Source: Perna viridis (lineage: Eukaryota). Taken from it: a stretch of 64,000 bases of DNA. Positions 1,721 through 59,289 of the stretch are shown here, piece by piece. Location: positions 24,738,001 to 24,802,000 of the forward strand of contig CM074517.1 in the NCBI GenBank assembly GCA_037379345.1, in the 5' to 3' direction. The translations under genes and the position numbers were made by a program. The notes under the pieces are model-generated. The model was not told the DNA's origin. It saw only the letters and a list, made by a program, of their open reading frames with translations, and searched no databases. The first letter of the stretch is position 1, and each line of letters starts with the position of its first letter.

Positions 1721-1895
1721 CTTTAAAAAGTAAAGGCTTTATTATATAGTGATGGCCTAAATGACGTATTAACTTGACTGTTTGGCAGAACCTGCCTTAC
1801 ATTATATACAATTGTTTTAGTAGAAAAGATAAAGGATAAGCATCCAGGAGATAAAGCTAAATTTAAAAAAAAAACAAAATATCAAATATATATTC

Positions 1896-4126
1896 CTTTA
1901 CCATAGATTTCTAAGTGTAGGTCAAGATATGAGGCTGACTTCACAGTGTCTGTAGTATCCTTTATCTCAAGTTCTTTAGGGTAGATGCGATGCATCAAAT
2001 CCCCGAAATTAGGATTGTTTAAAGATAATACGTCATCTATATAGCGGAAACTGAGATTAAAGGATCTAGCTAAACGATATTCTTTCTTTCGGATCAGATC
2101 AGCTATGAAGTCAGCCTCATAAGAGTGAAGAAAAAAGTCAGAAGATAAAGGAGCACAATTTGTTCCCATTGGAATACCGACCGATTGTTGAAAAACGCGT
2201 CCACCACTCTGGACAAATATGTTGTTGATTAGAAATTCCAGCATTTTGTAAACCTCTTCCTCTGTATATTTGGAAGATGATTTGGAATTATTTCTTATAA
2301 AGTGTGAGGAATCTCTACCAAGAACTATATATTTGTATCTAGGTGTACCATCTTTTTTGGAAAAAAAACAACGATGTATAATGTTTTTAAGTCGGGATTT
2401 TAACTGAGTATGGAGAATAGAAGTATACAGGATCCACATTGAATTAATACCACTACAGGAGTAACAAGTGTTGTGGTAGGACTGTAGACCCTCTTTGACA
2501 GTTGTTGGTATAGAAGTTAAAAGTTTTGAAAGAGGTTTGATGGTGCATTTTGCAGATCAAGCTATGGTCTCACTAACCACTTCTTGGTCAAATGGCCACC
2601 CCCGTATGTAGTACCAAAAACACACTGAACCTAGACATATGCATTGTAAGTGAATTATCTGTGTGTATTATGATTAAAAGTAGTCAAAATAAAGCTGAGA
2701 ATGTGTACTTTAAAATCATATATGTAATTAACTACAAAAGTATATGAATATTGTTTACATGTATGAGTAATTTGCCTCCATGCTGTCAGTTAGCAGAACA
2801 GGTAAAAATGTGGATTTTCAGTATTATTTATTCAAGTAAATTTTGTGGAGAATTTCTACAATCATCGTACCATTAGCATGATTTTGGAAGCCTTGTTTTC
2901 TAAGCTTCGCAACGGTATGCAACTTTAAGATGTCATTTGTTCTGGGAATTCACAGTGAGACTTTTTTAACATGTAAAGTAATGGAAACGTTAGAAATGGT
3001 TAGTGAGACCTATGAAACGTTGTTTGTATGGATTCTTGTATGGAGTTTAGGAATCCAGTACATAGACGGTAAAACACAATCATCGTCCTGGGTAGAGAGA
3101 CCATAAGAGGATGGCACAGATTTATGGTTTTCCACAATCTCTTCTTTGGAGAGTGTGGTAGCATCAATGGAGACATCATGTAACTTAGGTGACGTATAGT
3201 GGCGATGGTCATGACTCCTTTCCCATCTTGGATTTTTGTCAAATAAATTAATCACATTTATGCCATTGTTATATTGGCTTGAAAGGTTTCCTATACTTTT
3301 GATGTTGTCATTGCATCCGCAAGGTATTGCAGTACCTAGTCTGCGTATCCAGTACTCCTCTCTTTCCCTGCGATAATTTTTACTTAGAACGGGACTGTTC
3401 GTAGGATGGTAATTTTTTTCTAAAATACGAACGTTCATAGAGAGAATTGAATGATCTTGTTGATTAAAGTGACAAACAGTAGGGGATTTGGTAGTGTTAA
3501 TTCCCGAACGATGACCGCACATCTTTTGTTTAATAGTTCTTGCGTTTCTCCGACATATACAAAACCACATAAGTTGCATTCTGATCAATGTATTAAGTTT
3601 GTTGATATGCAACTTAAGTCATCGTGACTTCTTATATGGAAGGTTTTGTTTGTAAGGGAACTGTAGAAGTAAGGGTCTGTTATAAGAATGTTGCATGTTT
3701 TGCAATTTTTAATACCACATTTTGATATCGTTGTAGTCGAATATATCATTTAAAGTGATGGAACATGGTTTGATAATTTTGAAATAGTTAGAATTTTTGT
3801 GCTGGAAGAGCTGGTCTGCAGACTGAACGAGTTATTGGGTACTTTTAGTTGAATTGGTTGGAGCACTTTCCATACCAGACGTGAGCGTGCTAAGATTCCC
3901 ATCTGGGGACACCACTTTCTTACAAGACAACAGAGTGTCCGATCTGCTGTCAGGTTTGGACCTTTTTACACTGGGCAACATCCGAGCCAGTTTTTACTTT
4001 CATTCCTCTTGTTAAAACCATTATTTTTTGAAAATTGTATTACCGGGTTGATGATCCACCAGCAGAGGTATCGACCCAGTGGTGTGAAAGAGTAATCAAG
4101 GGAAGCAAGGTTATAGCGGTAATCAA
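1896..4126 (-). mobile_element. Penelope-like retroelement, Naiad-type order (N-terminal GIY-YIG, C-terminal RT), decayed, internally deleted and 3'-truncated
   Basis: Minus strand, 5' to 3': CGIKNCKTC Zn-knuckle (~3720-3690), then NLIH*SECNLCGFVYVGET (GIY-YIG, ~3600-3545), then GHRSGIN..HFNQQDHS..RREREEYWIRRLGT..PCGCND. This is followed by RT segments LPSMYWIPKLH, RFIA, QSVGIPMGTNCAP, FRYIDDVL and ASYLDL. EN and RT are fused at ~3165. A copy of the element's 3'-terminal unit lies immediately upstream of the 5' end (4090-4126), a pLTR-like arrangement. Confidence 0.9.
2566..3010. mobile_element. Non-autonomous TIR element (MITE, PIF/Harbinger-like) inserted in the Naiad RT
   Basis: 19-bp TIRs GGTCTCACTAACCA(C/T)TTCT at 2566-2584 and 2992-3010, with a 3-bp TAT duplication at 2563-2565 and 3011-3013. 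Removing it restores the RT codons RFIA. The superfamily is inferred from the GG termini and 3-bp TSD only. Confidence 0.85.
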
Positions 4127-4189: not shown

Positions 4190-7100
4190 AAAGGCTGGGA
4201 AATATTCTATGAATCATTCTTATTTGTTGACAACTATTGTAACCTAAGTTTTTTTTTACAGTTCGAAAAAAAATTTGCTATTGCTTTTATTTATGTAATG
4301 AAATCAAAGATTGTCAGGGTCCAAGCGGTATAAATCAATGATTGTCAGGGTCCAAGCGGTATAAATCAAGGATTGTCAGGGTCTAAGCGGTATAAATCAA
4401 GGGTTGCCAGGGTCTAAGCGGTATCAGGGAATATATTTAACATTATTTTTTAAAGCATTCTCTGCTTGTTGTCTTTAACATTAGAAACAGATTTAAAAAA
4501 AAACTTTTCTTCATGACCACATCACCCCAGTTAGCAAGGTTTCTATAAAGTCTTGTGATAATTTACATATAGGATTTCAAGCAAATGAAATTCAATGCAA
4601 TATGATCGAGGAACTTTTGAATGACCTTATCATTAAGAAAAGAAAGCTTTATACGCAAAAAGAAAGGGGGTCTTACTACTGATAAATTAAACGTGAGTCT
4701 TTTGCTCTCACAGTAGGTGAAGATGTGATATAGACTCACAAGAGTACATGGTGAGTTGTATGTCAAGGCTAACTTTATATGTGCAATGGAGATAGTCAGC
4801 AAACCGACGAGCTTCAATGGTTTTACATTATATACATCACAAAAAGCAGGACAAGAAAACTTGAGCAAATGCTTGATATTAGAGGGATCCTTTGAATAAT
4901 ACATGTAGTTCTGAATTTCCGTGATTTAAAACATACTTTTTTCGTTTGTTGGTATTTTACCGCAGTTTTATTAGAGGTCTTGCTGCTATTTTATGTATTT
5001 TGGGTAACTTGATCTTATTTGTTCTCTGCCGTGTCATAGTGAAAATGTCAAGACAAAAAACAAACAGAAAACAAAACAAAACAAAATATTTTAAATCAGC
5101 ATCTCAGGTATCGTTATTGCATTCTACAGCGGGTTTTTTATTTTTTTTTTTCTGAAGCCGAGTTGTACATTAATGCACACAGATGTATTGATGTCTATAT
5201 TTGGTATGTTGTTTCATGTTTCTTTCTTTTCATCCATGGCCTTTTATAATATCGTTTGTTCACAGTGTGGTTACCCTTGATTCGCTTTTTAGAAGCTAAC
5301 AATACGGCGAAAACAGTCTACAATTTACAAAGAAACCTATCTATACAAAAGTACAAGCGAAAACTGGGTGTACCTTTGTGGAAGGCACTATTTTTATAGT
5401 TTTTATGAAAAAGCCAGATACACGTGCCATGTCTAAAGGTTAACGAGTGAACCTATCCTATCTGTCTCATCTTTTCCTCATAATTGAAATGAATATGTCA
5501 TACGCTAGATGTGTCCTATGTAAAACCTCTTAAACGGAGATTTTGAACTCTAGAAGTTACATATAGTACCCCTTAAACGTCATCAAAAGAAATTATTCAC
5601 TTTGGAGTCATGATATATTTTATTTCTACACAAGTTGTCCTGTCATTCCATTGGGAATTATAAAAGAAGAATAACCACGCCTATCAGTTGGTTGTCCAAT
5701 CCATTTTTTCTGTGAACTTTGTTATAATGTGAATGTTCAACTATCAGACCTTATGTGGATTGGCTGTAGTTTTATCGCCAGTCCCCTTTAAATAAGATTT
5801 AATTTTGTTCTTTTAAAATTAATTTACCTTCATATGCAATACAAATTATTCAATTATGTTCACAAGTTGTCTTTTCATAATGTTAGTTATGACGTTTAAA
5901 TATGATTTATATCACGTGACTTCTAATTTTTTGTGCAACAACTCACAGTCAACAGACTACGAAAGTTTCTATGACTCATTCATATTTGTTGACAACTACT
6001 GAAACCTACGTATTAAACAGTTTGTTGTATTTAATACACGTGTATTGATTTTTAAATAAAACTAAAGATTACCAATGTCAAAGTGGTACCAGAAATATGA
6101 AAATGAAAAATAAAAAAGGAACCCAAAACCTATTCAGAAAACCTGAAGAACGAAACGGAATGGTCGATTATTTCAAAAAGCTTCATATCATTTCTGGGAA
6201 ATTCCACGAAGTTGTTTCTCTCATGCGTGGTAGTCTATAAAATAGGAAAATCGAATAAGGTAAGATTGTCCTCATGCCACATTATATTAGTCGGCAAGGT
6301 ATTGATGGTTTCCTTAGAGTTTTTAGTTTGGAAAATATAATTTTCAAAACAATCATAATAATCTTATTGCATTATACATGATCGAAAAGCTTTTAAATAA
6401 CATAATCACTTATCAATGAAAACTTCATACACGGGAAGAAAAAAACTGGTCATGAGTTTTCACCTTTCGATGATATCTATGAGAGGGTAAAAATTCAATC
6501 CATTTGTAATGATATATGGAAATGATAAAAAAATGTATGACGCTTTAATGACAATTCATATAGCGTGATATATGAGAATTTGAACAAATGCTTTTCTTTA
6601 AATCGTATTTTCAAGGAGATCTGAAAGACATTCGGTCTCATTTAAACAAAACAAATTAACAAACAAACAAAACAAAACAAAACAAAAAAAACGATAGGTG
6701 TAAGAGGTCTATAAATATTCAGGGCTTTTGAATCACAGACGAAGTTCTAAATTTCCATGTTTTAACATACTTCTTTTTTTCGGGGGCTGGCAAATGCAAA
6801 AAAAAATATTACGACAGGAATCTGAAAAAAATTGGCCCTGATTTTATTTCTATAACGTAATCAACATTTTTTGTATTTTATGTTTTTCATAACTGGTATG
6901 GGGAGATAATAATGCGGTCTGGAAGATTCAAAAATTGCTAAAAAATGAATCATTTGAAATCAGCACCTACTAGGAAGTAAGTTTTATTCTACAGTGGGTT
7001 TTCCACAATTAACCTCAGTTGTTTTACATGACAACGGGGTTGCACACTTAGATTTAAATGATTTGTATGTTGTTTGCTTGCTTTTTATGTGTATTGCTTT

Positions 7101-10011: not shown

Positions 10012-10146
10012 TTAAAAAGAAAATGGTTTGGAGTATTAAATGTTGTTTCAGATACATGCTTTCAAATACTTTTATTTCTAAACATATATCAAGAGCAAGA
10101 TATTATCAAAAATAAACTTTAATTTCTTTTAACGCATTGTTTAAGG

Positions 10147-11623
10147 GAGTAATCAAGGAAACCAAGGTTCTAGCGGTAATCAAAAGAATGTAATCAAGGG
10201 ACAGGTGCCAGACATTGAAAACAGATATACACAACAAAGAACATAAAGTAACTAAAATAATACATACAGAGTAACAAAAGTAAAGAGCAACACGGACTCC
10301 ACTAACAACTGGGAGCATGGACCAGGTGCACTGATAGGGTAATCGTCCTTTGCTTTTCTAGAAACACCCGCCGAGTTGCTCATAAAAAGGCAAGTCCGGG
10401 GTAGTTGAAAGAGAAAAGGAAAACTATGACACGTTGAACAAATCAGATTCCATGGCTCAGATTGATACACCGTAATAATCCCCGAGTTCATTTTGACGAC
10501 CATAAAACTTCTGTAGTGATGACTTCAATCTTGCAGCAACATAACCCTGTTCCAAAAGCCTATTTGTTAGAAGTGTAGCGCGGTACAAAAAGTCTGCGTA
10601 GTTTCGGCAAGCTCTGGCATAACGTATGATTTGTGATATGAACACTCCGTACGCAGGTGCTGAAGGGATGTTGCCACAGATGAAAGGAATGTTGACGATT
10701 CTGAATGAAGTCATCACGTTTGTTGTAAGGTTTGGTCAATAGTTTTCCTTTACTATCGATTTTTAAGTGTAGGTCAAGATATGAGGCTGAATTCACAGTG
10801 TCTGTAGTATCCTTTATCTCAAGTTATTTGGAATTGATGCGATGTATCAAATCCCCGAAATTAGAATTGTTTAATACGTCATCAATAAAGCGAAAACTGA
10901 GATTAAATGATCTAGCTAAACGATATTCCTTCTTTCGGATCAGATCAGCTATAAAGTCAGCCTCATAAGAGTGAAGGAAATAGGTCAGCAAGTAGTGGAG
11001 CACAATTTGATCCCATTGGAATGCCGACCGTTTGTTGAAACACGCATCCACCACACTGCACAGATATGTTGTCGATTAAAAATTCCAGCATTTTGTAAAC
11101 ATCTTCTGTATATTTAAAAGATGATTTGGAATTGTTTTTACAAAGTATGAGGAATCTCTAATAAGAACTATATGTTTATATCTAGGTGTACCATCTATTT
11201 TTGGAAAAACAACGATGTATAATGTTTCAAAGTCGGTATTTTAACTGAGTACTGGGAATAGAAATATACAGTGTTGAAAAGTCATAGGTTTTAATGCTAT
11301 TATATTCTGATAATAGTCTGGAACTGATGGTCTCCAGAAGATCTTTCGAATTTTTCAAGATCCACACTGAATTAATACCACTACGGGAGTAACAAGTGTT
11401 GTGGTAGGATTGCAGACCCTCTTTGACAGCTGTGAGCATATACATTAAAAGTTTTGAAAGAGGTTTGGTAGTACATTTTGCAGATCCAGCCATGTAACGT
11501 TGTATGGTTTCTTGTGAAGTTTAGGAATTCAGTACATAGACGGTAAATCACAATCATCGTCTTTGGTAGAGAGACCATAAGGGGATAGCACATATTTATG
11601 GTTTTCCACAATCTCTTCTTTGA
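10147..11623 (-). mobile_element. Naiad-type Penelope-like element, 5'-truncated RT plus complete 3' UTR, frameshifted
   Basis: ORF pieces AGSAKCTTKPLSKLL, IKTYDFSTLY, FRFIDDVL, SASYLDL and PAYGVFISQIIRYARAC..SSLQKFYGR, followed directly by the ~280-nt 3' UTR ending CTTGATTACTC. Highly similar to 1896-3165. Confidence 0.92.
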
Positions 11624-11795
11624 AGTTGACAAAGGGAACTGATTGGAAATCAATACATAATATTAATGTAGATAAAAAATGAACGTTAACAAAGGTCTTG
11701 TAATGTTTATTTCACTTAATTTCCAATTTCTGATTTCTATTTTAATTGTCTCATAACAATATTAAGTAGTCTTGTTCCAAAACCATGGTGTTAAG

Positions 11796-12196
11796 GAGTA
11801 ATCAAGGGAACCAAGGTTATAGCAGTAATCAAAGAGTAACCAAGGGAACCAAGGTTATTGCGGTAATCAATGAGTAATCAAGGGAACCGAGGTTATAGCG
11901 GTAATCAAAGAGTAACCAAAGGAACCAAGGTTATAGCGGTAATCAAAGAGTAATCAAGGGAACCAAGGTTATAGCGGTAATCAAAGAGTAAAAAAGGGAA
12001 CCAAGGTTATAGCGGTAATCAAAAGAATGTAATCCAGGGACAAAGACCAGACATGGAAAACAGACATACACAACAAAGAACATAAAGTAACTAAAATCAT
12101 ACATATAAAGTAACAACAGTAAATGAGCAAATCGGACGCCACTAAAAACTGGGAGCATGGACCAGGTGCACCGGTAGGGTAAGCGTCCTCTGCTTT
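11796..12196 (-). mobile_element. Naiad 3'-UTR fragment with six tandem copies of the terminal 38-bp unit
   Basis: GAGTAATCAAGGGAACCAAGGTTATAGCGGTAATCAAA units start at 11796, 11834, 11872, 11910, 11948 and 11986, then ordinary 3' UTR continues to ~12196. Confidence 0.92.
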
Positions 12197-13759
12197 TAAG
12201 GGGTATAAACTATATTTTAGTTATCCTTTGAATTTTGATAGCGAATCCAAAATCTTTTTTTTTATTGATATTGTTGATCTAGTCTCTTGGGTGTTTTATC
12301 GAAGAGGGATGAAAGTCTACAGAAGGGTGATATCTTAACTGAGCTATTTGTAGGGGTTTATTTGTAGTTCTTTGAACTATCTGAGGAAATAATTCACAAA
12401 GAAATGGAGACTAAATTTTGGTGTACATCTTTTGAAGTTTTCTTCTCTTTAATATTGTTTAACTGATAGTGTCAGTTGAAGTTGGATCATTATTTATCGT
12501 GGTCATTTTTCTCGCGCAATATATTGATTTTTTTGTAATCCATTTGTAAACAGTAGCCTACTAAAATGTCGAAATCAATGTTTTTCTCTTAATTTTGGTT
12601 AAGTCTGTAATAAGTATAATGTTTAGGGCAATAAAGGTTTGTCTGTTAAAATGATAACCACATTAGTAATGAATTTAGATGACAAAGGATATTCCTTCGG
12701 ATGAAAGCAACTACAAAGATTTGTGCATAGTTTTTGAAGAAAAAATGGAGGGATTAGCCATATGTAGACGAGAAATATTTTCCTCTGTAAGTTTCTTCAA
12801 GGAAATGTATATGAAAATTATGTAGTCTTCATATTTTTTTCTTTTTTTGCTGTGTATCATATCCATCTTGATCTTTTTATTTACATTATTTAGCAATAAT
12901 AAACAATTTGTTTTATTTCCATTATACATACATTTCTTCATTAATGCTGATCTCTTTTCGTATTGAGCGTCATAGTTTACAAATGTTTACAAAGCCTTTT
13001 CGAATTTATATTGGGATGGTATTTCTACCTGTGGTCTTTTGCTTCAATGAGCTCATATGATCCGTCTAATCGTATCATACTAATACAAAACAGGGTCTGT
13101 TCGATTGATATATCGTTTAATCCTACAATACCTGAAATATTCATTGTATGACATCAAACTATAATCAATCAAGTATTTAGTCAGGTTTGAAAAAAAACAT
13201 AGGATTTGCTCATACATCTTATCTGTTAAAAGTTAAGAGCATTACAGTTATACGTACTACTTTTGATTCAGAATAATGGACATTTCAGTTTAAAATCAGA
13301 AAAAAACGACATAAACAGTATAAGATTTCCTTCCCATAGTAAAATCTTTTATATGGTGTCCTTAAGTGGTTGATAAGTGCAATGCAAGTGCAAGTGTATT
13401 TTTCAATTTAAAAAAAAGAGATATTATAGGACGCAATTTTCTAATGACCAAAATCAATCACAGTAAACTATTTTGAGTAGATTAACTTGTTTTTACTGAT
13501 TTTATAACACTCAAGTAGCATTTGATCAAATTCGTATGATAAACAAACATTAGCATGTTGCTTTTCATGCAACTATTTGTCTTTGGAGATATAATCATAT
13601 AGAATACATTGCAGAATTCAAAATCAAGGGTGGTAACTCTACTAAAGAAACTGAGATATAATGGAAACTATCGAATTGTCTATGGATCTATCTTCTAAAA
13701 CCAGATATATTGGAATGAATAATTATATAATCCATCATATAGAGTTTTGAGTATTTCTT

Positions 13760-14899: not shown

Positions 14900-15025
14900 G
14901 AGTAATCTACAAAGAACATAAAGTAACTAAAATCATACATACAAAGTAACAAAAGCAAATGAGCAACTCAGACTCCACTAAAAACTAGGAGCATGGACCA
15001 GGTGCACCGGTAGGGTAAGCGTCCT
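14900..15025 (-). mobile_element. Naiad 3'-UTR fragment, internally deleted
   Basis: gagtaatc is joined to acaaagaacataaagtaac...ggaccaggtgcaccggtagggtaagcgtcct. Confidence 0.85.
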
Positions 15026-17769
15026 TGAGAAAAAAAATGAATTTATGAAAAGGATATAGTAAAATAAAATCAATCTCTTGAATCCGACAAAAAGAAAATT
15101 TCCCCCAATATTTGTCGCCATTTTAAGCTGTAACCAAACTTTGTATGTGTGTAAGGTGTATTAGATCATATAGGACACAACTAAGATAAAACAGCATAGG
15201 CGTATTCAAGGGGGTCCCGGTTTCCGTCTCCTCCACCCGAACAGTTTGGTTGACAATATGTAAAATAATCATGGAGTATGATTTTGTTTTTGCAATAGCG
15301 ATATTTTATGTTCCCAGTTTTTTTAATGCTTTGGGTTTACTTTTATATGTTAACGTTAAGTATCATTCTGTGTAGGAATTTGGCAACAAATAAGTTCGTC
15401 GTTTATGCCTCAAATACATTTAAAGCAACCTAAAGGTTATTGAATTTATCTTAAAGCATTTAGACATAGATATTATTTTACTGCTTTGCTTAAATAGGGA
15501 AAAAGTGCTGAAAAATTTTCCCGCCATTTGTCCATAGTGCATTTAAACCAAAATTGGCCTATCAAAAATTTAAAGAAAACAAATTTCACAAATACTTTGA
15601 TGGTTATTTCTAGAGGTCATGAGGTATAAATACATGTACTCCTATAATGCAATAAAATCTCCGCGTTTCTTCTTTTATCTGTTGATATAGCGTATGCTAT
15701 TTTAAATTATCTAAATTACCATACTGAGAATATACCCGTAGTCACCGTATCCATATTAAACAGAACACTCTAGCCTGTTTACACACAGCAAATGATCTGC
15801 TTTCCTTAATCTTACGGCTATGCTTGGTATGTACTGTTTTTATTACAATGGTACGGATTATATCAATTGATGTTTGATTTTATACGATTATTGTTTCCTT
15901 TCTGCAAAGAATATATTGTGACTTTCACGAAGCCACCAGAGAGTTGGAAATTAAATAAAATACACCGTTAGTGAACATTGATAGAAATAAAACATGCAAA
16001 CCGTAATATTGTGCAATTCAATAGACAAGCCTCACAATTTTTGTTAATTGATGTTTTAACGATGACGTAAAATGATGTTCATTCGTAAAGATTTTATAAC
16101 ATGCTGTAGCAAAACCAATTCCTTTGAGGTCCGTATTTAGAAGAGACTAATCACATTTATCAACAAAGTACATGAAGTGTTATTTTTTTTTTATTTTTAG
16201 ATATATATTATATATGTGTGTTTATCTATTCACTGTGAAATCAATAAAATAGGAATTATTGCTTTCGGAGGGAACGATAACGATGTGTAATACAGTTGCG
16301 ATTTTTAGTTGTTCTTTCAAGGTTTGTACCTGACTCGATTTACTGAAATACATTAATGTTGTAGAAGCATTAGGGAAGTCTAAATTTTGACAAGTTATAA
16401 TTGCACAAATAAAGGTTAGATATTCGCACTAAAATGATTGCAAGTAATAAGTTTTAGTCCCCCTTTCAGAAAATGTCTATAGTGATAGCTGCTATTCCCA
16501 TAGCTATCGCTTTAGGTCATTAACTACCATTCAGCACGTGTTTTATAAAGTACATTTGAAGGTTAATGTCTTCCATTGATTCCATGATCTGCTTCTTCAT
16601 TTTTTTTCTTTTCGAAATGTTGTCGATCAATAATATATAGTGCATGTAAAAGAAAGATAGGTATCTGCTTTAATGAAGCAACCACCGAGTTTCTAAAGTT
16701 GAAATCTACACTTGAGTTGATTGGAAAATAGATTTTTAGAAAAATAGAAGAACTTTCTTCTAAGGTAAGCTTACAATTTTTATTTTCATTTTTATTTGTT
16801 TTATATTACCATATTTTCATGATTTGTTATTTATAATAATGTATGTTTTCTTCTAATTTTTTCTTAAATATCTTCTTCAAACCCGTCTTCTATTTACCTC
16901 AAAGTTAACTCAAAGTTAATGAAATTGACATTGAAATAACTCGGAAGTGTTTTTGATTAATGTTTTTTTTAATATTGTTTTTTCTTTGTTTGTTCATTTG
17001 TTTGTTTGTTTGTTTTTGTTTGTTTGTTTGTTTGTTTTTGTTTTGTTTTGTTTTTTGTGTAATTGATCATCAGCGAAGTTGATTTTTGTTTATTCTTTAA
17101 TTTGAAAAGAAAATATCTTTTATTTTACAAAGCTTAAATGTTCTATAATACTGTATTGAGCGTTTCTTTAGAATAATTTGTTGAACGAATTGATATAATA
17201 TACATTTTTACAAGAAAGAAGGACTCTACACGCTTTTGGCAGGTTTGCAGTCAAGATATGCAATAAATAATTAGTTTGCTGCCAATAAAAACAAACATTT
17301 AAACCAGGAAAACGTTACGTTCGTGACATTGCCAAATGTGACCGCAATAACGACGTTTGCCAAACTGAGCGCACATGTCATTGAAAACGTCAAATGTTTC
17401 CCAGACATATTTTTTTACGCTAAAATAAAAGGACGACCACATCATGATGTAACGCACTATAAAGAACTTGAATGACGAAAATACTGAGGAACAACCAAAC
17501 ACAAACACTTTATAGAATAGGGCAAATACGTGTTAAAAATCCAGACAAATGTCCCAATTAATTTGTCGAGCTAAACATAAAAAGAGAGAAGTTCAATCAA
17601 GATTTAATACAAATATGTACGTTTACAATAAAATACTATAATTTTAGTTTTCGTGTATGTCCTTTAAAAAGCAATGAGTATTGAAATGTTTGCAATGTAT
17701 GACTTTTTATGGAATAAAATTGATCAAGACCTTTTCCTCAACAGTAATCACTATAAGGATGGGGTATTT

Positions 17770-19764: not shown

Positions 19765-20706
19765 AAACACTGGGAGCATTGACCAGATGGACAAGTAGGA
19801 AAGCACCCGCTAAGTTGCTCATAAAAAGTCCCGTCAAGAGTGGACGACAAATGGAAAGGAAAACTATGACACGGTGAACTAATCGGTTAATTTTTGACGA
19901 ATTATGGGGCAATTATTACAAATACCTGTAGGAACAAATTGTGCACCATTCTTAGCCGTTCTATTCCTCCATTTCTATTTAGCCAGCTTTAAACAAGGGT
20001 TACTACAGAAAAAAAGAGAAGAGCGATTTCAATTTCCGTAATATAGATGATGCATGATCTCTGAAAAAATGCTAGCTTCAAGGATTACCTTCATCTAATC
20101 TGCCCAAATTAACTTGAGATTAAAGAGACAACTGATGCACCTGCATCATAACTAGACTTTCATTTGCACAAAGATAATACAGGACGTTTGAAATCTTTAT
20201 GACATACGTCATTATTTTAACTTCCAAATAATGAATTTCCCCCTGTCTTAGTAGCATGAACCAGGTGAAATCATGATCCCAGTTTTTAGTAGAGAGTAAT
20301 CAAGGGAACCAATGTTATAGCGGTAATCGAAAGAATGTAATCCAGGGAAAAAGACCAGACATGGAAAACACATATACACAACAAAGAACATACAGTAACT
20401 AAAATCATACACACAAAGTAACAAAAGCAAATGTGCAACTCGGACTCCACTAAAAACTGGGAGCATGGACCAGGTGCACCGAAAGGGTAAGCGTCCTCTG
20501 CTTTTCTAGAAACACCAGCCGAGTTGCTCATAAAAAGTCAAGTCCGGGGTAGACAAACGCGTTACTCATTTTCTTTTGTTGTTTTGTATGTACTGTTTTG
20601 GTTATTTTGTGTTCTTTGTTGTGTATGTCTGTTTTCCATGTTTGGTCTTTGTCCCTAGATTGGCTTCTTTTGATTTCCGCTATCATCTTTGTTCCCTTTA
20701 TTACTT
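19765..20706. mobile_element. Nested cluster of Naiad fragments: old minus UTR piece, old plus RT/UTR copy, and a young minus copy at 20294-20559
   Basis: 19765-19890 is a diverged minus-strand UTR. ~19900-20291 is plus-strand RT (IPVGTNCAPFLAVLFLHFY, YIDD, LDFHL) running into UTR catgatcccagtttttagt. It is interrupted by a near-consensus minus-strand UTR and resumes at 20560 (gttactcatt...gttccctttattact). Confidence 0.8.
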
Positions 20707-23585: not shown

Positions 23586-26500
23586 GATGTCCGATGTCCA
23601 TTACGGTTTATTATTTCCGGTATAGTTCAACACAAACGGGGAGCACAACAATTGGTGTTTTTTTTTTTTTTTTTTCGGTCTTCTGTTTTGTTTTGTTTTT
23701 GAATTTGTTTTTGTTTCTTTTTTGTGGAAAGGGGGTAATTGATTCATAATTATTTGATTTTGTTTTGTTTTTGTTTTTGTTTTTTGCTACTATTTCTTTT
23801 TATAACTGCAAGGTTGTTTTTTTTTCAAACACTTTTATCCTAAAGTAAACACTTAGTTCCAGTTTTTATCCATGTTTGTGTCTATTACTTTGTTTCTATC
23901 TCTATTAGCCTTACTTTCTCCTTTAATCAAATATTTAATCATAGCTTTATTGTAAGTGTTGAATACAATATTCCTCTTGTGTTTCAAGTTTACAAAGTTT
24001 ATGATATCATAAAAGTAAAATAATAATAGCAATAAATCGTTGATTGATTTCAATACCTTGTTATCTCACAATCTTTGTAAAATGTTCGACGTTTTTATTT
24101 TAGATTACTTTTTACCTAAAAGAACGATCGTCATAAACATACTACTGTTCTTCTTTAGCTACTTTGTTATTGGTTTATTTATACAGCATATCCAATAATT
24201 GCAATAATTCATAAAAATACAACATCTAGCTTGGCTTTTATCTCATCTAGTTTTTCACTTCATTAAACGGACTTGTTTCTTGTATTTGTATGTCAGTCTT
24301 TAATCTTTAATGCTGAAAGTATGTAGCTTTTCATGGTTCGATATCTAAGTAAACTCAACCTTTTTGTTCTGGATTTCCAACCATGTGAAGGTAATTGTAA
24401 TATAACTTATTCCTTTATAAAGCGACATATTAAGGTGTACGTTTATGAATATTGGTTGATATTGTCTTGCGTAGCATTGTATTTAACGCATGCTTGAAAG
24501 TGATTTATCCATACAATAATCCTTTAGTTATACAACGAAGCTATTTCTGATCAATTTGCCCTTTTGTCATCGATGTTGTCTACGAATTTAAAGATTGTGT
24601 TGGAATTTAAATCATATTCACTTTTGGTTGCTTTCTATTGTGAATATAATGGTACTATATAATAGTATTACATATTATTCATTTAGAAAAGTATTTTTAA
24701 TTCCAATACTGCACAAACTTAGACCATGGTAGACTATCATGATCCAACTGCTATGGTTATACCATTTTGACGAGATATGCCTTTTTTTTACCTGACAGAT
24801 TTTTTTTAAATCTGACTAGAACTTGATGTTTTGATAGAGTAATTATGGGAACCTAGATTCGAGCGAGAATAAAAATAATGTAACCAAGGGATATTGAGTT
24901 TGGGAACCCCAAGATCCGTGAATACATGCATGAACGACCGAAAATAGCTGTCCAATCCTATAGTAATACCATACTTAACGAAAGCTCATCAAACATTGTG
25001 TATTCCCGGCCTCTCTATATAAAGTCATACATATCTTTAAATAGACCGGGGATAAGAGAGGTAATCAAAATAGAAAAGTTTTCACACATTTGTATGACTT
25101 CTGATATTAAAGCTGTAAAGTGACACTGATGTAAAAGTGAAATAATCTAAGCATGACTACAGCTTCTGCTAGAACAAAGGTGTCAACCTCCAGTAACTTT
25201 GCATTTTGTAAACTAGGAAATTGAAGTATGATTCATTAAATATTTCAAAAGCCAACATTAAGGAATATATATTTCAATAGATGGGAAACTGTTTGAAATG
25301 ATGGCATCTATTGTATAAAAAGATTCCTTTAGATAAAATGTTCAAATTGAAATATGTAATATAAACTAGCTGTCAAGAATGAGGCAGTACACCTAACCAA
25401 TAACTAGTTTACAACCAGTCTTATAACTACTCAACCTTTCAGAGTTTAAAAAAGTTATAGCCAGTTTTATAACTCCTTACGAGATGTCAAGCTTTCTTTT
25501 TATTATGTAGCTGTGTTCAGTTCAGCATATAACTCTTGTCCAGCATATAACTGTGTCCATTATATAAGTAAGTTTGCATCATTCTATGCACAGCAATGCT
25601 CTTTATTTTTTATAAGTCATCATATTTTGGTACATGTATTAGGTAACATTTATATTGAATACTTACATGATTTAAGCCATTGATTTTACGAATAAAGAAT
25701 TTTTTCCTATATTTCACCTCAAGATCTTTTAAACATTGAAAATAACACGGATGGTGAACTTTTCTAAAACTTTATACATGGTTTTGTACATGAATGATCC
25801 ATATAATATCATTTTTGAACAAAAATTGAATTATAGGTTTTTGCAAAATAAAGATATAGTTTTATATAGGCAGACAGCTGAAAATTTACTTCTTTTTCTT
25901 ATCAATGGTAAAATAGATGTCCAGTTATTCTTCTAAAACATGAATAGGATAACAAAAATCAAATTTTAAAAAAAATCTTTTCTAAGTGAATTTGACTAAA
26001 TATTCAGTTGTTTACCTAAATATTCAGTTGTTTACCTAAATATTCTGTAAAAATGATCTGTAAATACTAGATATGGTTTTGTTTGGCCGGTGATGTAAAT
26101 TTCTAAAAATAGCAATTTTGTTCAAAATCTGCATGTTGAAATTGTCAGAAGATGTACTTAATATGTAATGTAATATTATGTACAAATGTAAAAAAAACAA
26201 TTGAATTGTAGCAAAAAATTAGGTGGTACAACATGGCTCTACCTTAAGTGTATCGAAAAAGGTTTTATAGAATGTTCATGCTGCTATGTTTTGGTTAAAA
26301 GTGGTTCGTTCTACGTTTTCAAATCGTGTATACTTTTCATAATTATAGTGGTTGTTGGCTTGTGAATATTTCATAATATTTGTATAACCATTTTGTGCTT
26401 TATTAGACAATTATGAATATAAGGTATATAACTTTCCCTACCTATTGACTTTATTATTATGAATAGTATTGTTTATGAAACATATTGTACGTGTAATAGT

Positions 26501-47142: not shown

Positions 47143-50100
47143 CGACAAAATTATAATTACATTAAGTATTATTTATCTAAAACCAACCGGTGGTAGACAC
47201 GAAGAAAAATAATGATTCAGATTTAATTTCAATAGTATTGTATTCAGTTAAATTATTATATTTAAGCTATATCATATTGCAAGTCAATTGGTTCTATTGT
47301 TTCATTATTTCGAAAATTTAACGTAGTCAGTACCTATGTTTTAATATCACTTTTTTATTCTTTAACTAGATCTGACTTTTTCCAGAAACAACGTTTACAG
47401 CTAGTATTAGAATAACCCTGTAAGAGTTAGATCAATCTTTAGTTGATGTATTTCTTTGAATTTTGTGATGTAATAAGTTTTTGTACAGATATCTTATATA
47501 CTTTCATTGTAAATGTTTTTTTTTTTATAAATGCAAATGAGTATTATGTACATGTATTTAGAAATGCATTCCATTTAATTATATTTCATGCAAAGTTCTA
47601 CTGTAAAGCCATTGTGTACTTATAGAAATAATAGTTTGCACAAAGGAAACGTTGCTTATTTTAATTGTTAATTGAATTTTCCCCAAAAAAAATAATTTGA
47701 AAATTAAGAATTGCATATTGAAATGCTGTCAAAACAATCTCTAGAATCTTGAATAATTAAAGCACAAACCAAGATACATCTATGAATTGTTATGTTATTA
47801 TGTAGATTGTCATTATGTAATGTTTTCGTGGCAAAACGTTTTTTCACTGGTGTGTTCTTTTATTTTGATGCTTCGATTTATTTTTGACCATACTAAGAAA
47901 ACACGATAACAAAATAAAAATTGACATCTTCTCGTTATGTTAATATAGAAAGATGAATGTGAATGTTTCAAGACAATAGTGGTTTTTATGCTTTATTTAT
48001 TTTTCCTTTTTTGCAATTTATTCAGAGAAATTTATTTTTTCAAGAAAGTCAAAAACAAAACGTAAACATATGGATAGATTTTTTTCGTTAAGAAATAAAG
48101 ACTAATAAAGTTTTTACGCCATAGATGAAAAATCAAAAGAAAGACTGAATGCATTTCTTAGTAACTTAATCGATCGCATCTATGTAAAATTTATGGAAAC
48201 TGGTTGTTTAAAGACAATTCTAGTACAGATTCATTTGTTTTTCAACTTTTTCAGTGGATAAGTTTACTTGATTTCAATCATACATTCTTGTTCAAATAAT
48301 CAAAAACCAATGATAACCACGTGATTCCTTGGTTTGACGCTTCAATTTTAGAAACAAAAAATAATTAATTAATGGAATATGGACTTGAGACAAATTGATA
48401 ATAAATAATTCTGAATAATTGTTCTTAGTTTGAAAAATCATTAACGACCACGTTGAAGATTTTAGTCTAAGCGTGAGTCACTAAAGACAATTTTCAACAA
48501 AGAAACAGAATTAATATCTATAATGAGGTAGGATACATTTCTATTCCAATTTCTCACATAAACTACAGTAATATCCCTAAGAATTTTTTCATGTTTATCT
48601 ATTTGCATATTTCGAAATTATTGAGAATGATATATATATTAGTTGATACTGCGTTTGTATTTGTTCTGCTGTAAATCTGTTAAATAATTTTCATAATTTT
48701 GATACCAATGCTCTTTAATAAGTTTTTCAAATAGTAGTATCAAATATAATGTACCATTAATACATGTAAAAAACAGAAACCATTTATTTCAACACAGATA
48801 TTGTTGATGTTTAAAGAATATAACAACATTGATTGAAGGGAGAATTTTTTATCATTTTACATTTTTACTACTAATATATTATTTGTCGAAATATAAAACT
48901 TGTGATAAATGTACTGCGATTTGATTTTAGTCATCCTTGTAAATACAAATTTTAAAAAATTAATATTGACGGAAAAATAAATGCAGCTGTTTCTACTATT
49001 TTCCCCCAGATAAAGTACCATTGTAATTGTCTGCTACTATATATGCTAAAATGGACGCCATAAATACCTCCATTGTGGTCGAGGGTTCTTGTAATGCCAT
49101 TCTGGGGTTTTAAAAGATAAATAGATACATTTTTGTATAACATAAACGCTATAGAAATAATTACAACGGTACTTTATATGGTGGAAAATAGTAGATTCTT
49201 TTTATTTCGGCAAGAATTTTGGTTTCCTTTATTACTTTTTTTCTGACGTGTTAGAAATAAATATAAAATAACACAATAATAGGTTCTCAGTTTCTATTAT
49301 GTGCCGCAGTATTTTGAATTTTCATATGAAATGTTCCTTTAAAGTACCAATCCATATTAGACAATGACTGGTTGTGTTGTGTGGTCTGTATTTCTGAATT
49401 TGTACCTGTAAAATGCAAAACAAAATCGAAACGAAATGAAGTGAAAGGAAGCGAAACGGGAACAAAATAAATATCGAAATATTTGACATAGCACGTTCAT
49501 CTCAAAATCAACGAATAAATTCTTAAAAAAAGACAGGATAATAGAAGTTTTGTTTTTGTCTTGATATTGAAAGTTCATATATATATATAACAACATTTAT
49601 CTATAAACTCGTGTTTTCGTTTTGGCTTACGACCATTTATATATTGTTCAGTTCATACATGTAAAGAATATTCAAAGCCATTGTATGATGACAATGTAAA
49701 TGAATGGCGAAAGCCTGATCAAGTTCATATTTAAAATTTGGAATTCTAATTGATATTTAGATAAAGATGAAGGTAATCAGTTTTTAAAACAATAAAAACA
49801 AGGTAGATATATACATTAAAAACTGGTCTAACCAAACCGCTTTAGGACTTAAATAAGTAGAACCCAATTTCAGTTTTATTTACATTTACTTTACATTTAC
49901 AATGTTATCGATCATAATGATGATTGAATAAATTTCCGTTTTCTGCTTCCAAATGTTGACGACCTAGTTAAGACTATTTCCTAGACGTCTAATCATGATT
50001 TTTTTCTACATTTCCCTAAAATTACCCATCAATTTTTTTTTTTAAATTAAAAAATAGTTTAATATTCTTCTTTATATTTGTAGATACAGTTTGTACAATG

Positions 50101-50167
50101 TAAATGTAGTATTAAATTTATTCTATTATAGGTGAAGCGATAGGTTGAATTAAGACGAGCCAAAGAA

Positions 50168-50222
50168 ATGAAAAACTTTCTACATATTCCGTTACTTCTG
50201 GTTAACTGCATCCTACTTAAAG
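50168..50222 (+). CDS. Ig-domain membrane protein B, coding exon 1 (signal peptide)
   Basis: Acceptor before 50132, MKNFLHIPLLLVNCILLK, G|gtatgt. Confidence 0.8.
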
Positions 50223-50783
50223 GTATGTTTACTATTTCTCATCAATTTAGGTACATGCTTGTTATTTTCCATATACTCTGTATTGAATGTGATTGTGCTC
50301 TATTCAAGGGATATATGAGGGGAAATCAATTGAGAAAACTATGACGTAAAGGACAAAAGACGCTGAACAGCACTACATAACTTAACTTTGCACTCAGAAT
50401 AACGAATAGCAAGAACCAAACTAATTTTTTAATCACTTTGCACTTGCAATGTTCAACGAAAAGATCACTTCAGTCAAGCAAATATATATTATTAAACAGG
50501 AGAATTGTAACGCGGTTTCGATATAGGGTTGTTTTGCATTCATTGACTTGGTATTCAGTATTTTATCTTAAAGCAAGGACCAATAGATATCAAGTATTTG
50601 AAGTTAATGATTTGGTACTTTATGTTCTGACTTATTCAGTGATAAAAACGTTTTTCTTTTATCATCTCTTTGCCACTTGTGGTACTTTTTTGCAGTTTTC
50701 TTCATTTTTATCCTTGATAAACTTGCATTTATATTTTTATCAAATTTAAAATTGCTTGAACATATCAAACGAGTTGGTTTTAG

Positions 50784-51089
50784 GTGGATGTCTGGTTGTT
50801 AATACGCATGGTACAGAAGAGAGCGAAGCTGTAGGAGGTTCCCAACTTTTCGAGGTTGACCTAGAAGAGTATACAGGGATAGTGGAAGGTTTTTGGATCA
50901 AGACAGATTTTACAGGAAGAGAACATATTATTCGTATAGATAATCAAAAATATTTTTCAAAGGACAAAGCTGACTTTAGAAAACTTACTATTGACTCTGT
51001 AGAGAATTCTGATGCTGGTTATTATGTCTACCGTGCTACAGATGACTTGGAAACTGTAGATAGTTCTCCTATTATTTTTTTGGTAAAAG
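50784..51089 (+). CDS. Protein B exon 2: Cys-less Ig-like domain
   Basis: 306-nt phase 1-1 exon: GGCLVV..GFWIKTD..KLTIDSVENSDAGYYVYRATDDLETVDS. Confidence 0.85.
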
Positions 51090-51316
51090 GTTTGTATGTA
51101 TTTGGTAGAGATAAAATGGTAATCAAGGGAAACCAAGTTATAACAGTTATCGGAAAGGAAATTATCATCTTAGTTGTCAAAACCTAACGTTTAACTGTTT
51201 TACATTACGGATATTGGTATTATAAAGTATGATGATTGTGTATTACTAACATTTTAATGTGTGTGTTTGTGTGTGTGTGTGTGTGAATACTTAAGTATTC
51301 AGTTTATGTCTTTAAT

Positions 51317-51618
51317 ATGCCACAACACAGGTAGGTACGAACACGTCAACAGAATTAGTTTATCTAGGTCAAACAATGACTGACTTTTTATTACCTACCA
51401 AAGTGATCGTGTGTGTCAACCGTTCATTAAAAAAAGTCTCTGTTTTGGAAACAATCATAAATGGGAATTTAGATGTAAGATACAGTGATAGTATAGTAGA
51501 CCAACATCGTTAAATATTAGAAATATTCAAACGGGAGATTTAGCAGCCTATGTTTGTATGGTTCAGAGTAAGAATTGCATTTGGGGCAGCCCAGCAATCA
51601 CATTACAGTTAGCTACGG
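51317..51618 (+). pseudogene. Dead copy of the second Ig exon inside gene B
   Basis: Aligns with 34060-34368, but the acceptor reads tttaat, the donor reads G|atattt, and the first Cys and Trp regions are frameshifted. Confidence 0.88.
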
Positions 51619-51659
51619 ATATTTAAAGTTTTAGTCGGAAAAATAACAGGTGTAGCCTT

Positions 51660-52085
51660 CTATAACATTGATTAAACTAGTCATCTAGCCCATGTTATGG
51701 AATCGTCATTTATTCAACAAACAAATCTACCCCTATATCATGGAATCATCATTTATAAACCAATATTTCCTTATAACATTGGATTGTCATTGATTCAGCT
51801 ACTAATCAACACCAATACATAAAATAGTCATTGGTTCAACATCCTTACATTAAATCGTCGTTGTTTCAACTACTAATCTACGCCTATAACAAGAAATCGC
51901 AATTTGTTTAGCAAATTATCTGCCCCCAATAACATGGAAACACATTTAGTTCAACTACTAATGCGCCCCTCTAATATGGAATTGTCATTGCTTCTACTAC
52001 TCATCTATACCTATATTATGGCATTGTTATTGGTTCAACAATCTAATCTACCCCTCCATCATGTCATCATTGGTTTAACTTAGGT
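51660..52085. repeat. Intronic ~41-bp minisatellite, paralogue of 34460-34862
   Basis: Same consensus ggaatcgtcattggttcaactactaatctacccctata, ~10 units. Confidence 0.85.
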
Positions 52086-52543: not shown

Positions 52544-52682
52544 NNNNNNNNNNNNNNNNNNNNNNNNNNNNNNNNNNNNNNNNNNNNNNNNNNNNNNNNN
52601 NNNNNNNNNNNNNNNNNNNNNNNNNNNNNNNNNNNNNNNNNNNNNNNNNNNNNNNNNNNNNNNNNNNNNNNNNNNNNNNNNN
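52544..52682. other. Assembly gap
   Basis: Run of N. Confidence 1.
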
Positions 52683-53509: not shown

Positions 53510-53671
53510 NNNNNNNNNNNNNNNNNNNNNNNNNNNNNNNNNNNNNNNNNNNNNNNNNNNNNNNNNNNNNNNNNNNNNNNNNNNNNNNNNNNNNNNNNNN
53601 NNNNNNNNNNNNNNNNNNNNNNNNNNNNNNNNNNNNNNNNNNNNNNNNNNNNNNNNNNNNNNNNNNNNNNN
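53510..53671. other. Assembly gap, possibly hiding a further stalk exon
   Basis: Run of N; the sequence after the gap copies the intron sequence that follows the 53089-53205 exon. Confidence 0.9.
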
Positions 53672-56712: not shown

Positions 56713-57003
56713 GAGTAATCAAGGGAACCAAGGTTATAGCGGTAATCAAAAGAATGTAAACCAGGGACAAAGACCAGACATGGAAAACAGACATACACAA
56801 CAAAGAACATAACGTAACTAAAATCATATATACAATGTAACAAAAGCAAATGAGCATCTCGGAATCCACTAAAAACTGGGAGCATGGACCAGTTGCACCG
56901 GTAGGGTAAGCGTCCTCTGCTTTTATAGAAATACCCGCCTAGTTGCTCATAAAAAGTCAAGTCCGGGGTAGACAAAAGAGGAAAAGAAAACTATGACACG
57001 TTG
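56713..57003 (-). mobile_element. Naiad 3' UTR copy (left arm of an inverted pair)
   Basis: Near-consensus UTR with a single terminal unit. Confidence 0.92.
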
Positions 57004-57109: not shown

Positions 57110-57642
57110 CAACTCGTGGATCGTTATGGTGTATCCATCAGCACCATGAAAACTGATTTATTCAACGGGTCATATTTTTCTTTTCCTCGTTTGTCTACCC
57201 CGGACTTGACTTTTTATGAGCAACTCTACTGGTGTTTCTAGAAAAGCAGAGGACGCTTACCCTACCGGTGCACCTGGTCTATGTTCCCAGTTTTTAATGA
57301 GTCCGAGTTGCTCATTTGCTTTTGCTACTTTGTATGTCTGATTTTAGTTACTTTATGTTCTTTGTTGTGTATGTCTGTTTTCCATGTCCGGTCTTTGTCC
57401 CTGGATTACATTCTTTTGATTACCGCTATAACATTGGTTCCCTTGATTACTCTTTGATTACTGCTATAACCTTGGTTCCCTTGATTACTCTTTGATTACC
57501 GCTATAACCTTGGTTCCCTTGGTTACTCTTTGATTAGCGCTTTAACCTTGGTTCCCTTGGTTACTCTTTGATTACCGCTATAACCTTGGTTCCCTTGGTT
57601 ACTCTTTGATTAGCGCTTTAACCTTGGTTCCCTTGGTTACTC
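57110..57642 (+). mobile_element. Naiad 3' end with six tandem terminal 38-bp units (right arm of the inverted pair)
   Basis: LVDRYGVSISTMKTDLFNGS, then UTR, then TTTGATTACCGCTATAACCTTGGTTCCCTTG(A/G)TTACTC units at 57415, 57453, 57491, 57529, 57567 and 57605. Confidence 0.93.
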
Positions 57643-58191
57643 TTAGAAAGAAAAGTAAAATCAAATGGAGGTTATTTGTCAAAAAGACAAAAGTCACTTT
57701 ATATTAGTCAGTCAGGTAATAATGTTGATTCGTTCCATTGGCACTTATTATGTGCTGCTATATTTTCTGGTGAATATGGAATGTTAACAGCGTAGGAAAT
57801 TATACTATAATAGTTGAAGTCATCGTAATTTTCATAGCGTATGGATCAAAACTTTCATCAATTTGTTTGTATACTAAGTTTTAAAACCTCGTGTTACATT
57901 GGACGCGTGATACTTGCTGCAATAACAAAATCAAGGAAATAAACGTAACACTACTTTTTAAGTAACAAGTTTCATGAAATCTGTAAAAAAAAAACGTTTT
58001 TTTTACCTGCTTCACTAACGGTGTATTGTGGTATTGCAGCCGCTAGTCTCTATCCGTCCGTCCGTAACGCTAATGGGCTACCTACAGTACTTGAATGAAC
58101 TTTATGAAAACTGGGAAACATATGTACTACGGTTAACTTTGAAACCGAATAAAACGCTAGCCAAGTTTTGAATGCCTAGTATATCTTTCAG

Positions 58192-58523
58192 TTGAATGTC
58201 CATGTGATTGTGAGTTTAAACAGAGGCCAGAATATTGGGCAAGTCAAAACTTGACAAACTATACTATGGAAGAACTGAGAATAATTCTGAGACCCGTTTT
58301 GGACAAACTTGAGAAGGAATTAAAAGTTGACAAGACAAAACTTTCATCGACCATCAGAAAACTGGCGAGTGCTGAAGACCACAGACCATCTTCTAAACAT
58401 ATTGGTTACATTGGAATAATATTTCTGGTGTCAGTTATTGCGCTGGTGGTCATTTCAGATGTAATTTCGTTTAAACAGTACGTTTTCAAAAAATGGACAA
58501 ATGGGTCATTATCAAATGAATGA
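58192..58523 (+). CDS. Protein B last exon: CPCDC, coiled coil, TM, short tail
   Basis: ctttcag|VECPCDCEFKQRPEYWASQNLTNYTMEEL..LSSTIRKLASAEDHRPSSKHIGYIGIIFLVSVIALVVISD..SNE*. Visible exons total 999 nt = 332 aa plus stop. Confidence 0.9.
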
Positions 58524-59289
58524 AAAGCGAAGCAGCCTTGAAACAATGAGTTTATATTAAGTAGCAACAGGATTCTATCCACGTTTTTTTAAAGTAATTC
58601 AAGGGCTGCAAATGGTATCTAGGTGATTTCTATTTCCTAGCCATATTATATTCCATTTTCATGGTGGGAAAAAAAAACACCGAACAAAGGATGCTTTTCT
58701 TATTCTTACTTATTTGTTTTCATAATAAAGATGTTTTTTTTATTTTATCGTGTTTTAAATACCAGTTAATACACATGTATCATGTTTTCCATTATAAATT
58801 CTTTCATTTCAACATTACATAAGTCTCTGCCTTCACCAACCTAACATACAAGAAAAAAAGAAGTGTTCAGTTCAAAATGACAATATGAGAAATGTTTTTT
58901 TTAATATGACATTTAAAAGTTTTAAATAAGTAGAAGGTATGAAATACCCCAAGACAGCGAATTTCCAGTAGAGAGTTTGATCTCTTAAATTGTGATTCGA
59001 ATTGTAAAAGATTGATATTTTTCTCATTACACATAAGATTTTTCTGCAGCATAAACGACCGCAGCATGTCTAACACTTTTGTGGTTACAATATTAGTTTT
59101 TGACACAGTTAAGCATATGGACTTCCAGTTCATTATGGACCCATCAACTGATTTGGACACAATAATTGAAATTCAAATTCATTTTCGAAATTGGACGAAA
59201 AATAAAAAAGTCGATTTTTTTGTTTTGTTTTGTTTTGTTTTTTTTTTTTTTGGTGGCCCTTTGGCCCCTTTTAAATCGAAATTTCTGAA

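Follow-up and report, generated by a model that had tools for sequence, protein, structure and literature searches.

Six-unit arrays of a 38-nt tail at 3′ ends of a Naiad-type Penelope-like element in Perna viridis, and their possible origin in reverse transcription

A Naiad-type element family in the window

The window, a 64-kb stretch of Perna viridis DNA, harbours copies of one retroelement family, among them the following.

1893..4089, minus strand: decayed near-full-length Naiad with the conserved 5′ motif, an N-terminal GIY-YIG region and a large internal deletion, its 3′ end missing
10147..11640, minus strand: long older copy, 5′-truncated, with decayed reverse transcriptase (RT) and a single tail, 10.8% from consensus
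12024..12197, minus strand: 5′-truncated body of the insertion that carries array B
14900..15026, minus strand: deleted copy that lost ~100 nt internally and kept the last ~8 nt of the tail; common end base, flank beginning TTTC
20294..20559, minus strand: single-tail copy, nearest relative of the array A element, with two transversions in common, one of them tail variant A19
30795..31109, minus strand: single-tail copy, 3′ flank beginning TTTCA
56713..57003, minus strand: single-tail copy that faces the array A element head-to-head, with 107 bp of spacer between them, 3′ flank beginning TTTCA
57111..57414, plus strand: body of the array A element, a 5′-truncated Naiad with the last RT ORF codons and the 3′ UTR, followed by array A

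Layout and sequence alignment both point to a Naiad-type Penelope-like element (PLE), as the original prediction had it: a GIY-YIG region lies ahead of the RT, and the tail, inverted arms (20294/20706 and 56713/57642) and 5′ truncation were all found. Translations of the copies at 4089-1893 and 11640-10147 gave a decayed ORF with the GIY-YIG region before the RT, and the former, which is frameshifted, reads CKTC..CNLCGFVYVGET ahead of the RT. The RT pieces of that copy (about 3180-3000 and 2556-1893) are separated by unrelated DNA. Full-length relatives could be aligned with its pieces; in one of them (P0058) Pfam places GIY-YIG at 131-222, while a Pfam search with the window's own endonuclease piece gave no match. 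At the fingers insertion between RT motifs A and B, the RT piece of the window is colinear with its relatives and, by eye, also with the Naiad rows of Fig. S1 in PMC8557442. The window copies lack the CxC/DKA region ahead of the RT core through deletion or truncation; DKA was found in 8 of 8 aligned relatives, including P0003 (69% identity). At the Rfam gathering threshold, which minimal or decayed ribozymes could escape, the whole window gave 0 matches, and no canonical hammerhead ribozyme was found in it, as in Naiad PLEs.

The search with the RT piece retrieved 575 relatives among 1243 candidates. The best of those listed share 44-69% identity and are mostly unnamed; the best 120 of the 575 include one named bivalve protein. 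Six family motifs and two others found no match in the supplement of Craig et al. (PMC8557442), where line wraps could mask one; the family is therefore probably uncurated. Nine RT relatives (L001-L009) lie in contigs of bacterial assemblies, six of them from SUP05-group or mussel-symbiont genomes, and are most likely host DNA; similar matches in bacterial assemblies were noted by Craig et al. (PMC8557442). L001, from a bivalve-symbiont assembly, is a nearly complete related element.

Tails, partial tandems and inverted arms have been described for PLEs before (PMC8557442, PMC3846280). With the Naiad PLEs of PMC8557442 the present family shares an N-terminal GIY-YIG, a C-terminal RT, 5′ truncation, inverted arms, a 30-40-bp end extension and a conserved 5′ motif. 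In the available text of that paper, however, a single optional tail and no arrays are described, whereas here a tail was found on nearly all ends.

The 5′ truncation points of the other copies range from 22 to 1494 nt, and three tiny older insertions of 22-62 nt reach scarcely beyond a tail (32312-32333 and 49192-49236, plus strand; 24837-24898, minus strand). The inverted arms 20294-20559 (minus strand) and 20558-20706 (plus strand) abut; since one is 4% and the other 14% from consensus, they apparently stem from different sub-lineages; either an older copy served as insertion site for the other, or synthesis jumped from one template to another. The copies at 56713 and 57111 may be arms of one insertion. 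CTTAA adjoins the tail end of two separate insertions (10141-10146 and 11790-11795) and other flanks are T-rich, a possible target preference. A tail-like match at 51151-51119, within an open frame (E=0.18), was taken as chance.

Outside the family, paralogous segments of 67-79% identity pair 32365-34827 with 50080-52056 and 37058-37599 with 58030-58575, and a degenerate 42-bp repeat occupies 34492-34825. By eye, the open frames at 33975-34385 and 50750-51187 resemble immunoglobulin-domain exons.

The 38-nt tail and the two six-unit arrays

The tail units, the arrays and their surroundings are as follows (array units numbered u1 to u6).

4090..4126, minus strand: 5′ tail unit of the near-full-length copy, unit positions 2-38 (37 nt), with the element 5′ start TTTCACACC directly after
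4301..4424, minus strand: tail-like array without element body, four 31-nt units, relation to the tail tentative
11791..11796: probable target-site duplication (TSD) of array B, 6 bp, 1-nt overlap with the element end
11796..12023, minus strand: array B, six 38-nt tail units, private changes star-like, G32 in u3 and u5, T10 in u6
12196..12201: partner of that TSD, 2-nt overlap with the element start
57415..57642, plus strand: array A, six 38-nt tail units, u1 with A19, u2 with T10, u3-u6 with G32

An ungapped scan recovered both predicted arrays as six exact 38-nt units placed head-to-tail (57415-57642, plus strand; 12023-11796, minus strand). At period 38, TRF counted 6.1 copies at 57415-57644 (score 404) and 6.4 copies at 11796-12040 (score 393); it returned 34 rows for the window, many of them tandem repeats unrelated to the tail. 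The probable TSD pair (11791-11796/12196-12201) brackets the array B body together with all six units, and no convincing TSD was found for array A and the other copies tested. Two N runs (52544-52682 and 53510-53671) mark the assembly as scaffolded, so that repeat counts may be affected.

The arrays represent 2 of 14 family 3′ ends in the window, a set composed of 13 ends from a profile search at E<0.001 plus the internally deleted copy ending at 14900, with four weaker profile matches (E of at least 0.012) excluded. The remaining 12 ends carry one unit each, and no end carries two or three. Among the former are the copies at 10147, 20294, 30795, 39529 and 56713, for which one unit and a common end base had been predicted and were seen in 5 of 5.

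The unit contains an 8-nt direct repeat of period 27 (57416-57423/57443-57450). A GATTAC word stands 35 nt ahead of the junction both here and, by eye, in the Naiad_Olur consensus, and is a candidate boundary signal. The tail-like array at 4301-4424 lies 175 bp from the 5′ tail of the near-full-length copy; its best unit was equalled by 3 of 3000 shuffles and another unit by 140 of 3000, and it is possibly a tail-only array of a related family.

Neither the unit at 4126-4090 nor the variants shared between the arrays figured in the original prediction. The 5′ boundary of the unit coincides, to within 1 nt, with the 5′ junction of the near-full-length copy. The Naiad_Olur consensus likewise has ~40 nt from its 3′ end at its beginning, ahead of the homologous 5′ start, L001 displays the same head-to-tail junction of tail and 5′ start, and Naiad insertions are described with a 30-40-bp tail at either end (PMC8557442). 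Because the unit is found at 3′ ends and at the 5′ start of the near-full-length copy, the element reads tail-5′UTR-ORF-3′UTR-tail, and the resulting head-to-tail junction is tail/TTTCAC. The 38-nt unit is thus the Naiad tail, which is the smallest pseudo-LTR.

The sequence beyond the 3′ ends bears on the template. The 5′-start sequence TTTC follows the unit in 3 of 12 flanks, with TTTCA in 2 (P=1.6e-4), and the next-tail sequence TTTG in 0 of 12, a count that excludes two ends with decayed termini and carries a 1-nt boundary doubt in three. Flanks that match the junction of tail and 5′ start fit RT initiation inside a tandem transcript, as in the Anolis element, and the template seems to run past the unit into the 5′ start of the element. 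An RNA hairpin that might anchor the RT at this junction was rejected as not significant in the window or in L001 (none of five junction folds significant, z from −2.0 to 0.0), and three tandem units gave no better fold than shuffled sequences (z −0.13).

Age of the arrays and source of the extra units

Five young copies differ from their consensus by 3.5% on average. Array B bears 7 private changes over 228 nt (3.1%), compared with 8.0 expected (95% CI 2.8-14.4), and is about as old as its insertion, with a lower bound of ~1/3 of that age. The predicted origin of at least one array close to the time of insertion is supported by this match between private changes and family divergence. The further suggestion that part of array A grew later also held: units 4 (57529) and 6 (57605) share a variant, and u3 equals u5 and u4 equals u6 exactly. 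The identity of u5u6 with u3u4 extends over 76 nt (P=0.005 if the units are as old as the insertion), and two units were therefore added late, or by the assembler. A single late 76-bp duplication, at the DNA level or in assembly, took array A from at most four units to six.

The variants carried by the units differ in their distribution. The array A element shares two transversions with the copy at 20294 (P=0.012 for any of 10 pairs; 0.046 for any two changes), and one of them, A19, occurs in u1 only. A19 in u1 looks like an inherited source variant, and its confinement there implies that u2-u6 are seemingly not copies of u1. The extra units of both arrays share G32 and T10 (P=0.013), a P value that, like the others on variants, is post hoc and modest and comes from two arrays in one 64-kb window. 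T10 falls in u2 of array A and in u6 of array B; position 32 is mixed among the units of both arrays, with G32 first at u3 in each; and one unit of array A is identical to one of array B. G32 was found in 4 of 8 non-redundant extra units and in 0 of 11 first or single units (Fisher P=0.018, the units not being independent), while the sole 5′ tail in the window (4126-4090) has A32. Grouping the arrays as one clade by their bodies was rejected, as the bodies have 0 shared derived sites in 212 columns, differ at the lineage-splitting site 216 and belong to different sub-lineages. CpG decay as the cause of the shared T10 was also rejected, as 0 of 82 CpG opportunities were mutated in the five young copies. 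Since the extra units look old, lack A19 and have variants in common across sub-lineages, they seem to have been built at or near insertion from other tail templates; gene conversion between copies could alternatively have spread the variants.

The original prediction had the RT realign on a template of about 1.5 units, the half unit being supplied by one further feature.

57397..57416, plus strand: imperfect upstream copy of the unit end, found in family copies and never written into the arrays

The upstream copy itself is real: computed on the 30795 copy, its similarity is equalled by 25 of 3000 shuffles and by 4 of 7308 window tiles. It is probably what remains of an earlier tail duplication. 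Telomerase uses the 3′ partial repeat (alignment region) for pairing and writes the upstream copy into DNA (PMC12039810); realignment on 1.5 units thus predicts the upstream variant in the units and a period of 39-41. When 566 realignment registers were enumerated on upstream sequence, unit and junction, those with the longest pairing (4-6 nt) gave a period of 39 or 41 and 25-39 mismatches to the real arrays, compared with 2 mismatches for a period-38 register with a 3-nt TTT overlap. The upstream variant was found at 0 of 10 array junctions. For these two arrays, the results contradict a 1.5-unit RNA template. Both arrays lie in the same 3-nt register, with 107 direct-repeat registers of at least 3 nt on offer, 38 of them longer. 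The broader proposal, that the RT realigns on and recopies its own terminal template, survives in part: an origin in reverse transcription is still the best reading, but recopying of the element's own unit is disfavoured by the restriction of A19 to u1. The telomerase analogy in its 1.5-unit form fails.

Repeated initiation, inheritance or slippage

The best model, to which we give a probability of about one half, is repeated initiation at the junction of tail and 5′ start, with a stop after 38 nt and template jumps. Boundaries, junctions, ages and variant patterns are read directly from the DNA; to these it would add a stop, jumps and recourse to several RNAs. The RT would start inside the RNA at this junction, as the flanks and the biochemistry of the Anolis PLE suggest, and the common end base would thereby be fixed. 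At a junction with only a tail upstream, the RT would stop after 38 nt; the AAA at the cDNA end could then re-pair with TTT after a tail, and the tail would be copied again from the same or another RNA. After several rounds, a jump to a tail backed by 3′ UTR would carry synthesis on into the body. In that case the arrays would be partial tandems of minimal size that arose at the time of insertion or shortly afterwards, with more than one tail serving as template. A series of insertions of tails alone into an existing end would be indistinguishable from this and is counted within the model.

The 5′ boundary of the unit, the TTTC flanks, the shared register, the age of array B, the position of A19 and the sharing of G32 and T10 all argue for repeated initiation, as do the internal start of a PLE RT on tandem RNA (PMC11167929) and the repeat copying guided by 3 nt that has been proposed for DRT2 (PMC12039810). 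It fits less well with the unit counts, which are 1 or 6 only, where a simple stop-or-repeat process predicts otherwise; with the six units and the first G32 at u3 in both arrays, which suit a shared ancestral array; and with the one 5′ tail of the window, which has A32. The fixed 38-nt stop is a postulate of the model, and other copies are truncated anywhere from 22 to 1494 nt. Furthermore, no significant RNA structure was found at the junction, and TRF detected no terminal array at L001, L006 and L008, the three related loci with readable 3′ ends.

The main rival, possible though less probable, is inheritance, by which one or more source elements with a rare multi-tail array were copied faithfully, and single tails came from other sources or junctions. 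It accounts for the greater part of the same observations. The features that both arrays have in common (six units, G32 first at u3, G32 and T10) are what it would predict; it agrees with the equal age of array B and its insertion and with counts of one or six, it accounts for A19 being limited to u1, and the degenerate upstream copy hints that a tail duplication was once fixed in the family. However, the array bodies have no shared derived sites and differ at site 216, and the nearest relative of array A has a single tail. T10 occupies different units (u2 and u6) in the two arrays, and the single-tail flanks of both sub-lineages match tail/5′ start, not tail/tail. Inheritance is also silent on the origin of the first array.

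Post-insertion slippage or unequal exchange from one tail, with later conversion between copies, is unlikely. Late duplication does occur, as u5u6 demonstrates (P=0.005); L008 has a 24-nt array of 7.3 copies (5362-5540) inside its 3′ UTR, away from the priming end; and unrelated tandem repeats are many in the window. Yet A19 did not spread beyond u1, array B matches its body in age and has a star-like pattern, and both arrays occupy one weak register out of 107, exactly at the tail boundaries, with variants in common (P=0.013).

Equally improbable is a weaker version of the original prediction, in cis recopying of the element's own 3′-terminal unit through TTT realignment, in the manner of DRT2. 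The period of 38 and the TTT overlap fit it, array B is as old as its insertion, and the RT has the Naiad fingers insertion, which has been likened to the TERT IFD; but all units should then equal u1, whereas A19 is found in u1 only and the base at position 32 varies among the units of each array. The 1.5-unit template is hardly credible, its real upstream similarity notwithstanding, given the empty junctions and the mismatches listed above.

Comparison with known systems places repeated initiation among several related processes. In Poseidon PAc of Anolis (PMC11167929), the RT likewise starts within a tandem transcript, the tail lies between defined sites and genomic ends fall on those sites; PAc differs in its C-terminal endonuclease, its hammerhead ribozyme and an optional tail that is the stretch between two start sites, and reiteration is not reported in the available text. 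Slippage in LINEs and Alu (eel UnaL2, Drosophila I factor, Alu A-tails; PMC1636434, PMC3415434) also makes terminal repeats in priming and has been likened to telomerase, but the unit is 5 nt in UnaL2 and 1 nt in A-tails and is templated in cis by the existing repeat, whereas here it is 38 nt with a 3-nt overlap and templates are apparently mixed. The bacterial RTs DRT2 and DRT10 (PMC12039810, PMC12632851), which group with TERT and PLE, synthesize long tandem cDNA off an internal RNA template, for which realignment on a 3-nt motif has been proposed in DRT2 (PMC12039810); they differ from the present case in a dedicated non-coding RNA, a defence role, one fixed template and biochemical proof. 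Telomerase has a related RT and head-to-tail repeats at the priming end, yet it employs a half-unit alignment region and one template to make uniform short repeats, whereas here the half unit is unused and the units are mixed. Non-LTR retrozymes (bioRxiv 10.64898/2026.07.22.740005) form tandem arrays from PLE pseudo-LTRs, but with hammerhead ribozymes and, it is thought, circular RNA; here there is no Rfam match and the arrays are attached to bodies.

No report of multi-tail arrays was found in the literature searched, which covers older Penelope work thinly. In the metadata seen for PMC8557442, 3′ tandem repeats are listed for none of 54 Naiad families. By eye, no 3′ tail array was seen in 14 Naiad consensus ends, where a consensus would collapse arrays, and none in four ends of Chlamys families annotated 'tandem repeats at 3′ end'. 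The genome contig collection contained 0 exact matches to a 24-nt pattern from the tail. The nine loci that a protein scan gave belong to other families, and TRF detected a terminal tail array at none of them.

More speculatively, and with doubt, we suggest that the Naiad RT, a eukaryotic enzyme closely related to TERT and equipped with a fingers insertion, might remain attached just downstream of the junction of tail and 5′ start. Using an internal template, it would extend nicked DNA by 38-nt repeats, with realignment over three bases and switches from one RNA to another (for example, two bound by an RT dimer), until a single strand transfer led into the body. In its role the PLE tail would resemble the R region of retroviruses, and the arrays would record, as genomic fossils, the addition of repeats by a mobile relative of telomerase.

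Where the formation of PLE tails and partial tandems is concerned, Craig et al. (PMC8557442) ask for an in vitro system; one PLE, the Anolis element, has been reconstituted in vitro (PMC11167929). Because the boundaries are fixed, the junction is 3 nt and the tail variants are marked, a genome-wide count together with primer extension can separate re-initiation, inheritance and slippage. If inheritance or slippage is true, the arrays would be a minor structural variant of a known element. If re-initiation by the RT is true, they would document that the eukaryotic RTs closest to TERT as a family can copy repeats, and would reveal a way in which the ends of retroelements give rise to minisatellites.
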